From a virus (Duplodnaviria; Heunggongvirae; Uroviricota; Caudoviricetes), in IMG/VR virus record IMGVR_UViG_2778261418_000002, positions 1-6,109 of that record: DNA of 6,109 nucleotides, one strand, 5' to 3'. The translations under genes were made by a program, and so were the position numbers. Shown piece after piece: positions 2,737-6,109 of the stretch. The notes under the pieces were generated by a model. That model was not told where the DNA came from. It searched no databases and saw only the letters and a program-made list of their open reading frames with translations. Position 1 is the first letter of the stretch, and every line of letters starts with the position of its first letter.

Positions 2737-3402
2737 TCAAACAAACCCAGCCGCTTTCCGGCGTTCATATTCCTGTTTCAGCAACTCAATTGGCGTTGGT
2801 CCCGCAGGACGTATGGGTGCTGCCAGTTGCCTACGGACGGGTGGAACACTCAGTCCGTTACCAACATGCTTTGCCCATTTCGTCAGCTGCCGTTCTGCAA
2901 GCCGTTTTAACTCCCCCTCGGTCATCTGCCGCTCAATCCCCTTTGAACGCATCTCGAGGCAAATGTGATACAGCACGGGCTGAGGCCACGGATATTTATC
3001 GCTTCCGTCGTATCGCCAGGACTCATTGCGCCAGCGGCGATATTCCTCCATCACGTTATCCACCGTCAGACCAAATGGATTTGCCCCGCTCTCCGAAATC
3101 AGCGCCACAAACTCAGCCAGGTCCGGAGGCCATGTTTCACCCGCCCGGCAGCGGTCCATGCACTGGCGGCAGACCTGCCGGATTTGCTGCTCAGTCATCG
3201 CGCCAATCTGTACAATCCAGAGCTTCGAAGGTGCGGCCCCGTTCTTCTGGGTCCAGCGGTTCGAATAAATCTCCCCCATGAGTTCCCACAGCTTCCAGGC
3301 AGTTTCCGTCGTTGATAAATCCGTTTTCACGTTCCCACTGCTCACGTGCTGCCCGAATTTCCTGAACTGCCCGTGATGCGGTGCCACCTGGTGCTGCTGC
3401 AT
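2737..3402 (-). CDS. replication protein P-like (lambda P family helicase loader)
   Basis: C-terminal two thirds align by eye to lambda P as I recall it ([19 protein letters not shown] / [13 protein letters not shown] versus lambda AESYPWKSNAHYWLVTNLY / TDAELRRKAADEL). ATG at 3402-3400 has a strong SD (AAGGGGG, about 6 nt spacing) but overlaps the O-like ORF by about 212 nt out of frame. Alternative in-frame ATG at 3198-3196 forms ATGACTGA with the O-like stop. Start uncertain. Confidence 0.75.
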
Positions 3403-4231
3403 GGTTTACCCCCTTGCTGACTGGTTTAGCCTGCGCCCTGACGTGATTTACGTGACGGGCGAATTTCTGCTCCCACTGAACCTGCGTGAAAACTTTACCC
3501 TCCGCTGCCCAGTAGTCCCGGAAGGCGGCAAGTTCAGCTGGTGTAAATTCCGGCTCCGGCAGAGCCACTCCCCACAGAGCCGCCCGTCGTCGAAAATCCG
3601 GCGACGGATGCCAGCCATCGGTCATCGGAAATTTCCCGATGGGTTCGCTCAGGCCTTCCAGGTAATCAGGTTCCGATGTTTGCAACGGCACGCCATTTGC
3701 CTCACTGACCGGAGCACTCTCGCGCACGCGCGCGTTATGTGTGGGGTTTAATTCTTTATCTGTATCTTTATCTGTCGTGACTCGTCGTGACATGTCGTGA
3801 CATATGCGTGACTCGTCGCGCGCCCCCTCATTCTGTTTTCGTAATTTTTCCCTCTCGCGCTGCGCTCTCTTGCGCTCTGCCGGGGATTTCGCGGTTTGTG
3901 AAACGTTGCCATTGTCCTCTTTCAGTACCTGGCGTTTTTCCCATCCACTGATCAAATCTCCATCAAGTACCCGCCCCTGCATTGCCTGTAAAATTGAATC
4001 AATTACTTCTTCCGTCACATCAAGCGCACTTGCTAAATCTTCCGTCGTGACATCAATGTGACCACGTAGTGACACGCCGTGACATGTCGTGACATTTCGT
4101 GACGCGCTCACCAGAAGGTGGATATACACAGCCATCACTGTTGCGATTGGCTGCCCTGACACCCTGGCAATTGTTCGCCACTTAGGGTCATTTGGCATGT
4201 CATGCCATAATCTGAGCCAGGCGTTAGCCAT
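3191..4231 (-). CDS. putative replication initiator (lambda O position; YdaU/DUF1376-like by recollection)
   Basis: Track ORF 3191..4237 begins with GTG. Preferred start is ATG at 4231-4229 ([18 protein letters not shown]...) with GAGGTG SD. Sits between the CII-like and P-like genes as O does in lambda. Contains two embedded GTGAC repeat arrays and an AT-rich block, as ori lambda lies inside O. The family name is from memory. Confidence 0.65.
3775..3812 (+). repeat. iteron-like array A: four direct (T)CGTGAC repeats at 10-11 bp spacing
   Basis: GTGAC at 3777, 3787, 3797 and 3808. Preceded by an AT-rich block with two ~11-bp direct repeats (tctttatctg, 3752-3774) and an alternating CG tract (3721-3734); followed by GCGCGCC. 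Confidence 0.55.
4044..4103 (+). repeat. iteron-like array B: six direct GTGAC-core repeats at 10-11 bp spacing
   Basis: GTGAC at 4047, 4058, 4069, 4079, 4089 and 4099, all in the same orientation. The motif falls in all three codon phases of the O-like frame (peptide [20 protein letters not shown]). Confidence 0.55.
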
Positions 4232-4302
4232 ACTCACCTCTTTTGATACCGAATCTTTTTACTCACAAATTGCCGGAAGTGATCTGGTATGAATATCGCG
4301 AG

Positions 4303-4728
4303 TCAATGCACAGCCACAATATTTCCTGCAGGGCCACCACGATTCATCTGGTTGAAACCAGCGATCGCCACTGCGACAAAATCATCAGCGTCTCTCACCA
4401 GTCGTTCCCGCGTCTCCACCAGCTCCCGAAAATAGGCTGAACTGTGGCTGCGCATTCGGGCCACCAGCAGAGGTGGCATTGCTTTTTCGATCGCTGGTAA
4501 CAACGCCTGAATTTTTTTAACCGCATCAGGGGTGTCTTTCTCCACCCAGCGGAATATTTTCTGAGTATTGCGAGCCAGGGCTTCCGGATGGCTGTCGTCA
4601 TATAGCTCCGGGAACGTCATACCAAGCTCAAAATAAGCCCGGGTTATTTCAGCTGCCGGAACTTTTTCACCGTCCGGATGCGCCCAGACATTCATCGCCA
4701 TGCGGATGTGTTCATGCTTGATTTTCAT
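4303..4728 (-). CDS. ydaT: YdaT-like protein (CII functional analog in Rac/CP-933P-type prophages)
   Basis: Track ORF 4303..4728, 141 aa. Begins MKIKHEHI and ends IVAVH, matching my recollection of E. coli YdaT in length and termini. Its ATG overlaps the stop of the Cro-like gene (TAATG). Occupies the cII position. Confidence 0.7.
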   Translation of the reverse strand: MKIKHEHIRMAMNVWAHPDGEKVPAAEITRAYFELGMTFPELYDDSHPEALARNTQKIFRWVEKDTPDAVKKIQALLPAIEKAMPPLLVARMRSHSSAYFRELVETRERLVRDADDFVAVAIAGFNQMNRGGPAGNIVAVH

Positions 4729-4940
4729 TAATCATTCTTTCCTTCGTTCGAGGTGCTATCCTGCTTCTTGTAAAGTTCTGGGTTGTATTTCAATTCACCG
4801 TTAGTAATTTCATCCAGTTCCATTGCGCGAAGTTTGGGAATAACTGCTTTCCACCGCACAACAGCCACATGTGAAATTCCAAGAGCCTCAGCTACTAGTC
4901 GCTTTTTTTTGAAATAGCGCAGAACATCATCTTTGAACAT
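4728..4940 (-). CDS. Cro-like HTH regulator (YdaS/DicC-like)
   Basis: Track ORF 4728..4940, 70 aa. ATG at 4940-4938 with AGGAG SD at about 6 nt. HTH signature KRLVAEALGISHVAVVRWK. First gene of the operon divergent from the repressor. Confidence 0.75.
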   Translation of the reverse strand: MFKDDVLRYFKKKRLVAEALGISHVAVVRWKAVIPKLRAMELDEITNGELKYNPELYKKQDSTSNEGKND

Positions 4941-4969
4941 AAAACTCTCCTGTTATTTCGAGCGGGAGG

Positions 4970-4983
4970 GTAACAATAGTTAC
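4970..4983. promoter_or_regulatory. operator-like palindrome GTAAC-AATA-GTTAC (proximal to cro)
   Basis: Perfect 5-bp inverted arms with a 4-bp spacer in the cro/cI intergenic region. Lies where the -10 of a leftward promoter would fall, given the perfect TTGACA -35 at 4996-4991 on the - strand. Confidence 0.45.
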
Positions 4984-5017
4984 ATAGAAATGTCAACCAT
5001 AGCAACATCACTTGGTA

Positions 5018-5031
5018 GTAACATTGGTTAC
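5018..5031. promoter_or_regulatory. operator-like palindrome GTAAC-ATTG-GTTAC (abuts repressor start codon)
   Basis: Same half-sites as the 4970-4983 site. Ends 1 nt before the ATG at 5032. Contains TAACAT, a possible -10 for a leaderless repressor transcript. Confidence 0.45.
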
Positions 5032-5706
5032 ATGAAAAACACTATCAGCGAACGTATTCGGAATCGTCGAAAAGACGTTGGATTAACCCAACAGCAGGTT
5101 GCGAAAGCAATCGGCATATCTCGTGTATCCGTAACAAAATGGGAAAATGGCTCTTCAAAACCTGACGGTGAGAATTTGCATCTACTGTCAAAATTGCTTT
5201 CCAAATCTCCTGAATGGATTCTTTATGGAAAGGACTGTCACGATAAAACCGATGATCTGCGTCTGAATCAGTACCCTTACATTAGTGACAACATCGCCCG
5301 GTTGCCCGTTTTAACGTGGGAACAGGCTGGTTATTGGGATATGAGTTGTCCAGTAACCGAGATTCCTGGTATTAAGAATTGGGTTGATGTCATGACAAAA
5401 ACCGCTGAAAACTCTTTTTTATTGCATGTTGAGGGAGATGCGATGACAAACTCTAACGGCCTCCCAACCATCCCCGACGGATCTACCGTGCTGATCACAC
5501 CATGCTCAAGTAACATTAGAGAACTGGTGGGAAAAATAATCTTAATCCAATTGGAAGGAACGCCAAACGTAACACTAAAAAAAGTTGCGATTGACGGACC
5601 AAACATCTATCTGTTGTCACTGAATCCGCTTTACAAACCCATCGAACTGAATGGTGGTTACACCATTAAAGGTAAAGTTTCACAAATACATCAATACTTA
5701 GACTGA
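5032..5706 (+). CDS. CI-like prophage repressor: N-terminal XRE-type HTH plus C-terminal LexA/S24-like domain with Ala at the nucleophile position
   Basis: Track ORF 4933..5706 begins with TTG. Preferred start is ATG 5032 (MKNTISERIRNRRKDVGLTQQQVAKAIGISRVSVTKWENG), which leaves both operators intergenic; ATG 4990 is an alternative. C-terminal domain aligns by eye to lambda CI/LexA: QAG at the Ala-Gly cleavage position, VEGDAM where lambda has VEGNSM and LexA VSGMSM, and TLKKV...LNPLY versus lambda TFKKL...LNPQY. Confidence 0.8.
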   Translation: MKNTISERIRNRRKDVGLTQQQVAKAIGISRVSVTKWENGSSKPDGENLHLLSKLLSKSPEWILYGKDCHDKTDDLRLNQYPYISDNIARLPVLTWEQAGYWDMSCPVTEIPGIKNWVDVMTKTAENSFLLHVEGDAMTNSNGLPTIPDGSTVLITPCSSNIRELVGKIILIQLEGTPNVTLKKVAIDGPNIYLLSLNPLYKPIELNGGYTIKGKVSQIHQYLD

Positions 5707-5711
5707 GTCAG

Positions 5712-5738
5712 AACCCGCATTCATTGCGGGTTTTTTAT
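5712..5738 (+). terminator. rho-independent terminator of the repressor gene
   Basis: 8-bp stem AACCCGCA / TGCGGGTT with loop TTCAT, followed by TTTTTTAT, 6 nt after the stop codon. Confidence 0.65.
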
Positions 5739-5768
5739 GCCCTCAAGTGTACCTTTTGCAACATTGTA

Positions 5769-5797
5769 TTGACTCTAATGGTAACTCTTGTTACCTT
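5769..5797 (+). promoter_or_regulatory. putative rightward promoter (PL-like) with embedded operator GGTAAC-TCTT-GTTACC
   Basis: TTGACT (5769-5774), 17-bp spacer, TACCTT (5792-5797; weak -10). The 16-bp palindrome at 5780-5795 has the same half-sites as the two operators in the cro/cI intergenic region and covers the spacer and -10. Confidence 0.4.
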
Positions 5798-5975
5798 AAC
5801 AACATACCAACCCACCCCGCCCCACAGAACGCAGGGCAATACTTCGAGTTACCAGGCAGTGGTCAGGGGGTAAGTAGCCAGCCCGAGGCGTAAGAACATG
5901 ACGGCAGGGTTCAACTTTAACTATGCAGCAGGTTTTTGTTCCGCTACCCCGGCGTTAAGGGGAAATGAGGTCAAC

Positions 5976-6109
5976 ATGGATACTATCGATCTTGGCAACA
6001 GCGAATCTCTGGTATGTGGCGTGTTCCCCAATCAGGACGGTACGTTCACCGCGATGACGTATACCAAAAGCAAAACGTTTAAAACCGAAAATGGTGCCCG
6101 TCGCTGGCT
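5976..6109 (+). CDS. hypothetical early-left gene, partial (continues beyond window end)
   Basis: ATG at 5976 with GAGG 5 nt upstream; frame open to the window end (MDTIDLGNSESLVCGVFPNQDGTFTAMTYTKSKTFKTENGARRW...). In-frame upstream ATG at 5898 is an alternative start. Resembles a small Rac-region protein I vaguely recall; no name assigned. Confidence 0.5.
   Translation, partial: MDTIDLGNSESLVCGVFPNQDGTFTAMTYTKSKTFKTENGARRW

Follow-up and report, generated by a model that had tools for sequence, protein, structure and literature searches.

In phage lambda, the repressor gene and the early-left promoter lie on one strand in the order cI, rexAB, terminator, OL/PL and N, with operators of the OR sequence class overlapping the core of PL, which heads the arm carrying the recombination, xis and int genes. 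The lambda operators are 17 bp long, three of them are adjacent on the left, and nutL and the N gene belong to this arm. The operator of phage 434 spans 14 bp and has conserved outer bases around a variable centre that appears uncontacted. In the Qin prophage of E. coli K-12, the operon reads ydfA-ydfB-ydfC-dicF-dicB-ydfD-ydfE, and dicBp (TTGACC-17-TAATCT), which has been described as similar to lambda PL, carries a DicA Oc-like site over its spacer and -10 hexamer. DicA, a short HTH protein that has no S24 domain, recognises the operator TTGTTAGTCATAACTAACAA (PMC3441716). It represses dicBp 22-fold, and the promoter is derepressed by deletion of dicA but not by deletion of dicC (PMC10448788). 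In HK022 and phiKO2, only the repressor gene lies between the divergent lytic promoters. Their repressors loop OL to OR in vivo over ~700 bp and ~630 bp, respectively, as the lambda repressor does over 2.3 kb, and it has been suggested that repressor looping is widespread among lambdoid phages (PMC8053113).

The window, meaning the whole 6,109-nt stretch of DNA analysed here, is the 6.1-kb part of an E. coli lambdoid prophage that carries the immunity and replication functions. A prophage that strain MIN10 has at tRNA-Ser/mtfA matches it with 99-100% identity. The gene order of the window runs from a cro-like gene on the minus strand through OR, a plus-strand repressor gene, a terminator and a plus-strand promoter to ydfA, also on the plus strand. 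The cro-like gene (4728..4940; Pfam P22_Cro family, E 2.8e-16) is the first of the rightward early operon and is annotated as a Cro/CI family regulator in the 99%-identical prophage. The minus strand also carries a gene of the YdaT family (4303-4728), located where lambda has cII, an O-like gene for replication whose product has a DnaT domain (3191-4237) and a lambda P homologue (2737-3402). At the other side, ydfA (5976..6109; Pfam DUF1391, E 1.8e-25) continues past the end of the window. The initial annotation had aimed a promoter at the gene starting at 5976, and this gene indeed heads the early-left operon, which in the 99%-identical prophage reads ydfA-ydfB-ydfC-dicB-DUF1482-exonuclease-DUF4224-integrase (also given as ydfA-ydfB-ydfC-dicB-exonuclease-xis-int). 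That best-matching prophage carries frameshifted int and DUF977 genes.

The window resembles lambda in that its repressor gene and early-left promoter share a strand, the promoter core is overlapped by operators of the OR class, this promoter heads the recombination, xis and int arm, and the repressor is homologous to CI in both domains. It differs in its 14-bp operators (GTAAC-N4-GTTAC), and where lambda has three adjacent left sites it has a strong one and a candidate weak one 32 bp upstream. Since rex genes are absent, the OL-OR distance is ~0.8 kb, compared with 2.3 kb in lambda. In place of N and nutL there is a 170-nt leader and then ydfA, and the window repressor has Ala where lambda CI has its catalytic Ser. 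The length and the conserved outer bases around a variable centre recall the 434 operator, though the half-site GTAAC differs. HK022 and phiKO2 are alike in the lone repressor gene between divergent promoters and close in OL-OR distance, but differ in operator numbers and spacings; looping and cooperative binding have been measured in those phages. Qin shares the homologous operon and both the position and the architecture of the promoter but has a different immunity cassette. Based on the layout of dicBp and its likeness to PL, the window element appears to be the PL/OL (dicBp) of the same prophage family with a different immunity allele. It is very probable that 5781-5794 is the operator of the window repressor over the early-left promoter. 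On this reading, the arrangement is the classic one of lambda, found in an immunity type that is common though unstudied; in kind it is ordinary and leaves the understanding of lambdoid switches unchanged.

Palindromic sites at the two predicted early promoters

The pattern GTAAC-N4-GTTAC occurs exactly three times in the window, at 4970, 5018 and 5781. With up to one mismatch allowed, the window gives 3 matches where 0.09 are expected, and all 200 shuffles stayed below 3; chance is an unlikely origin of the three copies. In 13.4 kb of the 99%-identical prophage, no further exact site was found beyond these three. The distal site, the predicted left operator OL1, has a 14-bp core that matches the pattern exactly (5781..5794, GTAAC-TCTT-GTTAC) and lies within the 16-bp palindrome GGTAAC-TCTT-GTTACC (5780-5795). 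This palindrome had been described as carrying the half-sites of both proximal operators at a distance of about 750 bp, and both statements hold, the computed distances being 811 bp to the site at 4970 and 763 bp to that at 5018.

OL1 covers the spacer and -10 of the early-left promoter (the PL or dicBp equivalent), which on the plus strand consists of the -35 hexamer TTGACT (5769..5774), a 17-nt spacer (5775-5791) and the -10 hexamer TACCTT (5792-5797). A TG at 5789-5790 makes the latter an extended -10, TG-T-TACCTT (5789..5797). The overlap proposed in the initial annotation was confirmed at these coordinates, as was its lambda-like succession of repressor gene, terminator and operator-bearing promoter on one strand: HTH_3 and Peptidase_S24 domains are found in the repressor, and a hairpin with a T run follows the gene. 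This intrinsic terminator (hairpin 5710-5734, T's to 5736, plus strand, -15.8 kcal/mol) shows compensatory changes in its stem in three homologues (L010, L011 and L013). The transcript is predicted to start near A5804 on the plus strand, as homology to heteroimmune phages begins at ~5803, 7 nt past the -10. The -10 hexamer matches the consensus at 3/6 positions, as does that of PR, and a generic promoter and terminator scanner flagged neither PL nor PR nor the cI terminator. This miss is attributed to the weak -10 hexamer and was judged a matter of threshold, not evidence of absence; together, the miss and the 3/6 match are the main weakness at the sequence level.

The predicted PR (4967..4996, minus strand) consists of TTGACA (4996->4991), an 18-nt spacer and TGn-TACCCT (4975->4967). 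The OR1-like operator GTAACAATAGTTAC (4970..4983, exact match) is predicted over its spacer and -10, with the same overlap and register as at the distal promoter, and at both the right half-site of the operator forms TGTTACC(T/C)T. Thus, operator and -10 are arranged alike at the two divergent early promoters. The site equivalent to that at 4970 is kept in L010, L011 and L013. The predicted OR3-like operator GTAACATTGGTTAC (5018..5031, exact match) abuts the repressor ATG at 5032. Between these lies a possible weak middle site, TCAACCATAGCAAC (4993..5006, 4 mismatches), 23-25 bp centre to centre from either flanking site. It overlaps the PR -35, and its conservation may reflect just the constraint on that hexamer. 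On the left side, the candidate weak operator OL2, GTACCTTTTGCAAC (5749..5762, 3 mismatches), lies 32 bp upstream of OL1 and is the degenerate partner of the one perfect site. It is polymorphic at 4/10 half-site positions within the lineage of the window. At the same place in the alignment, L010 has a perfect GTAACAATAGTTAC, and the sites of L013, L119, L216, L218 and L220 are better than that of the window.

The commonest same-immunity allele, found in most copies (among them L037, L059 and L064), has a 20-bp palindrome at window positions 5778-5797, AAGGTAAC-TCTT-GTTACCTT, from which the full operator may be 18-20 bp long; the window copy differs from it, with ATGG on the left side. A full-text literature search for the operator sequences found no occurrence.

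PGAP places the repressor start at ATG 4990, giving a protein of 238 aa whose 14-residue extension is poorly conserved. In the Yersinia and Hamiltonella homologues, the protein begins at the position corresponding to 5032, so this start is favoured over that of PGAP. Neither ATG is preceded by a Shine-Dalgarno sequence, and the operator at 5018-5031, which abuts ATG 5032, contains a -10-like hexamer, TAACAT. This suggests that the repressor mRNA is leaderless or nearly so, as at lambda PRM.

Conservation and exchange with immunity type

Within the immunity type, conservation was assessed in 82 copies from IMG/VR and RefSeq (56 distinct sequences over ~1.1 kb, 4901-6000). Both intergenic regions are rather polymorphic across these copies, yet no half-site column (0/30) shows a non-singleton polymorphism, compared with 30/158 other intergenic columns (Fisher p = 0.005, a rough value because the copies are related). 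The half-sites of OL1 are intact in 81/82 copies, the right one being broken in a single copy (L088) and the left one invariant (82/82). Those at 4970-4983 are likewise intact in 81/82, and those at 5018-5031 are invariant. The 4-bp centre varies, and positions 5775-5779, just 5' of OL1, exist in at least seven versions.

Among more distant relatives, those with repressor homologues of 90% (L011), 88% (L013 and L119) and 67% (L010) identity have a perfect site after their terminators, with TATT, TCTT or TTCT as its centre, in a promoter of the form TTGAnn-17-TGTTACCTT. Their -35 hexamers are TTGACT, TTGACA or TTGATC at the same 17-nt spacing, while TGTTACCTT is identical at the extended -10 in all four; PR has TGTTACCCT. 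In L010, a second perfect site lies 35 bp upstream and aligns with window positions 5749-5762, so that two perfect sites flank the -35. Prophages of Yersinia, Hamiltonella and Arsenophonus, whose repressors keep the recognition helix, have GTAAC-like sites at OR, and after the repressor gene they have a site in the same register within a TTGACx-17-TACxxT promoter, with a partner site ~32 bp upstream; in the latter two a cI terminator precedes this promoter. In the Salmonella homologues (L007-L009, 70% identity, short contigs), no GTAAC palindrome was found over 250 bp beyond the repressor gene. The OR sites are kept, and the gene next to the repressor encodes 204 aa of no assigned function and has its own TTGACA promoter; it may be a moron inserted between cI and PL, similar to lambda rexAB.

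A scan of IMG/VR with a 20-nt word from the leader returned 120 loci, in which at least 12 unrelated promoter cassettes meet one common leader where transcription is predicted to start. Most cassettes have a -35-like hexamer at a fixed distance from the leader, with inverted repeats both near this hexamer and across the spacer/-10, and the repeats of each recur in its own upstream cro/repressor intergenic region. The 7-mers common to PL and its own upstream region number 12.9 on average; mismatched pairs have 5.7 (sd 2.9). For most cassettes, 7-mer sharing and the longest common substring serve well, but both under-score the GTAAC cassette, as only its 5-bp half-sites are fixed, and a gapped-pattern test is the right one here. 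An exact GTAAC-N4-GTTAC lies at the promoter in 19/120 loci; both OR sites, and no further copy, occur in 19/19 of these, a co-occurrence that is expected from linkage within one cassette. The remaining 101 leader loci, of other immunity types (974 kb), contain no GTAAC-N4-GTTAC site. The operator sequence thus appears to change with the immunity type, the cassette being exchanged as a unit.

The anatomy of the distal site, its conservation and its co-variation with the immunity type are observed in these comparisons, and they bear on a reading in which the palindrome is conserved only as a part of the promoter, derived from PR by an ancient duplication and linked to its cassette, with the repressor not acting there. 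The right half-site GTTAC overlaps TGn-TACCTT, and promoter constraint could account for part of the conservation; OL and OR are also inherited as one block. The left half-site, in turn, lies in the spacer, where a GTAAC satisfies no sigma-70 sequence demand, so promoter constraint does not explain why it is invariant next to positions (5775-5779) that vary freely. Relatives have a second GTAAC-type site upstream of the -35, perfect in L010, and heteroimmune cassettes have their own OR-type repeats at the same place. An exclusively promoter-based origin of the conservation is therefore very improbable.

The repressor and its predicted action

The immunity repressor (5032..5706, plus strand, 224 aa) is lambda cI / P22 C2-like and matches the Pfam families HTH_3 (E 2e-16) and Peptidase_S24 (E 9.6e-17). 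Among PDB structures, it matches full-length lambda CI (3bdn, E 2e-14), with both domains aligned. The HTH_3 domain is closest to that of P22 C2, whose N-terminal domain matches with E 2.5e-12, and the 434 repressor is matched too; the C-terminal domain matches the lambda CI C-terminal entries 2ho0, 1kca and 1f39. The recognition helix, SRVSVTKWE, is invariant among homologues down to 47% identity. Two elements of self-cleavage are kept: the Ala-Gly cleavage site, where EQAGYW (A99-G100) aligns with lambda VQAGMF, and the Lys general base, where LKK (K183/K184) aligns with lambda FKK. The catalytic Ser is missing, GDAMT (Ala137; within EGDAMT, residues 134-139, window positions 5431-5448) standing in place of lambda GNSMT (Ser149, within VEGNSMT). 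Ala137 is found in 83/84 copies, while the 88% homologue and more distant relatives have Ser. Based on this substitution, the repressor is predicted to be unable to cleave itself, and the switch would then not be directly inducible by the SOS response.

Binding, repression, the start site, cooperativity and looping are inferred from sequence. A dimer of the cI-like repressor (5032-5706) would bind the two GTAAC half-sites of OL1. Since OL1 covers the spacer and extended -10 (TTGACT-17-TGnTACCTT, start near 5804), the bound repressor would exclude RNA polymerase, and ydfA-ydfB-ydfC-dicF/dicB-exonuclease-xis-int would be kept silent in the lysogen, as by lambda CI at OL/PL and by DicA at dicBp. 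The weaker site at 5749-5762 may fill cooperatively. Later in lytic growth, the Cro-like protein (4728-4940) probably binds the same half-sites.

It could be argued that the distal site is mainly a target of this Cro-like protein, lowering early-left transcription in lytic growth instead of maintaining lysogeny, given that the P22_Cro-family gene adjoins OR. Lambda Cro and CI bind the same operators, and to our knowledge both proteins use the same operators in every lambdoid system studied, so that a role for the Cro-like protein adds to repressor control of the site and does not replace it. A site serving mainly the Cro-like protein is also hard to reconcile with Qin, where dicBp is freed by deleting dicA and not dicC (PMC10448788), and we consider it very unlikely.

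The absence of the catalytic Ser from the repressor would fit a different account, in which the locus is a decaying relic whose promoter and operator no longer function and are intact in the window copy by chance. Related prophages such as Qin are cryptic, and the best match has the frameshifted int and DUF977 genes described above. Decay is at odds with the repressor reading frame, which is intact in 84/84 copies, and with the 81/82 intact half-sites, both amid abundant nearby polymorphism. Moreover, the equivalent circuit is active even in the cryptic Qin (PMC10448788). Such decay is highly unlikely. That the palindrome instead acts as an RNA hairpin in read-through from the repressor gene, such as a processing or stability element, is scarcely credible. 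As RNA, a 6-bp stem closed by 4 unpaired nt could form (-7.6 kcal/mol), but the palindrome lacks a T run and is preceded by a strong terminator, and its two further copies are in the divergent promoter region, to which an RNA function of this kind does not apply. Its loop varies while its arms keep specific sequences beyond mere complementarity, and no compensatory arm changes, altering the sequence but keeping the pairing, were seen.

With 5781-5794 read as the repressor operator, the repressors bound at OL and OR may bridge the 763-811 bp between them. This distance falls among those of the proven loops (630 bp, 700 bp and 2.3 kb), and the C-terminal domain is homologous to that of lambda CI. 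However, OL has only one strong site and a degenerate second one. Looping between OL and OR is plausible here, with chances that are about even. The OR-to-OL distance is 761-765 bp in six of eight lineages, a clustering that is not counted in favour of looping, as the distance is largely fixed by the length of the repressor gene and phasing is minor at such range.

A further and rather doubtful proposal is that the locus is a domesticated, non-SOS switch in which a Ser137Ala CI acts at a minimal OL of one strong site looped to a two-site OR, with the leader as a second cis-acting layer. If so, the dicBF and recombination operon would be held off by an uncleavable CI, and induction would depend on an antirepressor or another signal. 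The 170-nt leader would then stem from a nutL region and function, for example, as an RNA of the rut or antitermination type.

Leader of the early-left operon and distribution of the immunity group

The conserved 5' leader of the early-left operon (5804..5975, plus strand, ~170 nt) is common to at least 12 cassette types. It precedes at least 4 different first genes. Its 5' end is rich in C and poor in G, its core, TAAGTAGCCAGCCCGAGGCG...CATGACGGCA, is invariant, and a CCCC-GGCGTTAA-GGGG hairpin lies before the ydfA ribosome-binding site. The leader has no match in Rfam and is annotated in no phage record, and RNAalifold gives a weak consensus with essentially one covarying pair; thus, no claim of RNA structure is made for it. 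Most of the long leader is absent from Qin in K-12.

No N-family gene and no recognisable nutL were found in the window, where ydfA (DUF1391) follows the leader. In an Arsenophonus prophage (L220, 3790-4130, compared with window positions 5870-5965), the leader core is followed by boxA CGCTCTTTAA, boxB TCGCTGAAAAAGCGA and a boxC-like GGGGTGTGTG, that is, a lambda-like nutL, and then by an N_peptide-family gene. At the position of this boxA, the window has only a CCGCTACCCC stretch. Because the leader core lies upstream of nutL and an N gene in this relative, the leader in E. coli may have originated as an N leader and be a remnant of it.

An upstream start for ydfA at ATG 5898 was considered and rejected as unlikely, since in L010 a stop follows after 5 codons, and 5898-5975 is probably not coding. 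This ATG is in frame with ydfA, 26 codons upstream, and a 3-nt indel in relatives keeps the frame. In some phage records it is the start of a coding sequence mislabelled as 'head-DNA stabilization protein D'.

The immunity module is found in 702/5426 complete E. coli genomes (~13%), and its carriers include STEC O26/O111 and ST131 strains. Among the isolated phages in the collection, none has a repressor more than 43% identical, and megablast against isolated phages matched mosaic flanks only and the immunity region in none. A scan of genome contigs with the repressor returned just two irrelevant HTH matches (Ruminococcus and Onthoplasma). For this immunity group, carried by ~13% of complete E. 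coli genomes and predicted to control the dicF/dicB cell-division inhibitors together with recombination and excision genes, the analysis defines the sequence of the operator (GTAAC-N4-GTTAC), maps the promoter and predicts where the transcript starts. These may be of use in predicting superinfection immunity groups, in engineering reporters or the derepression of prophages of the same immunity, and in annotating the many allelic PL/OL cassettes behind one leader.

In the replication region, clusters of CGTGAC/GTCACG-type repeats (e.g., tcgtgactcgtcgtgacatgtcgtgacat) lie at ~3760-3830 and ~4040-4110 on the minus strand, inside the O-like gene. These repeats within the gene of the replication initiator resemble origin iterons as in lambda O/ori.
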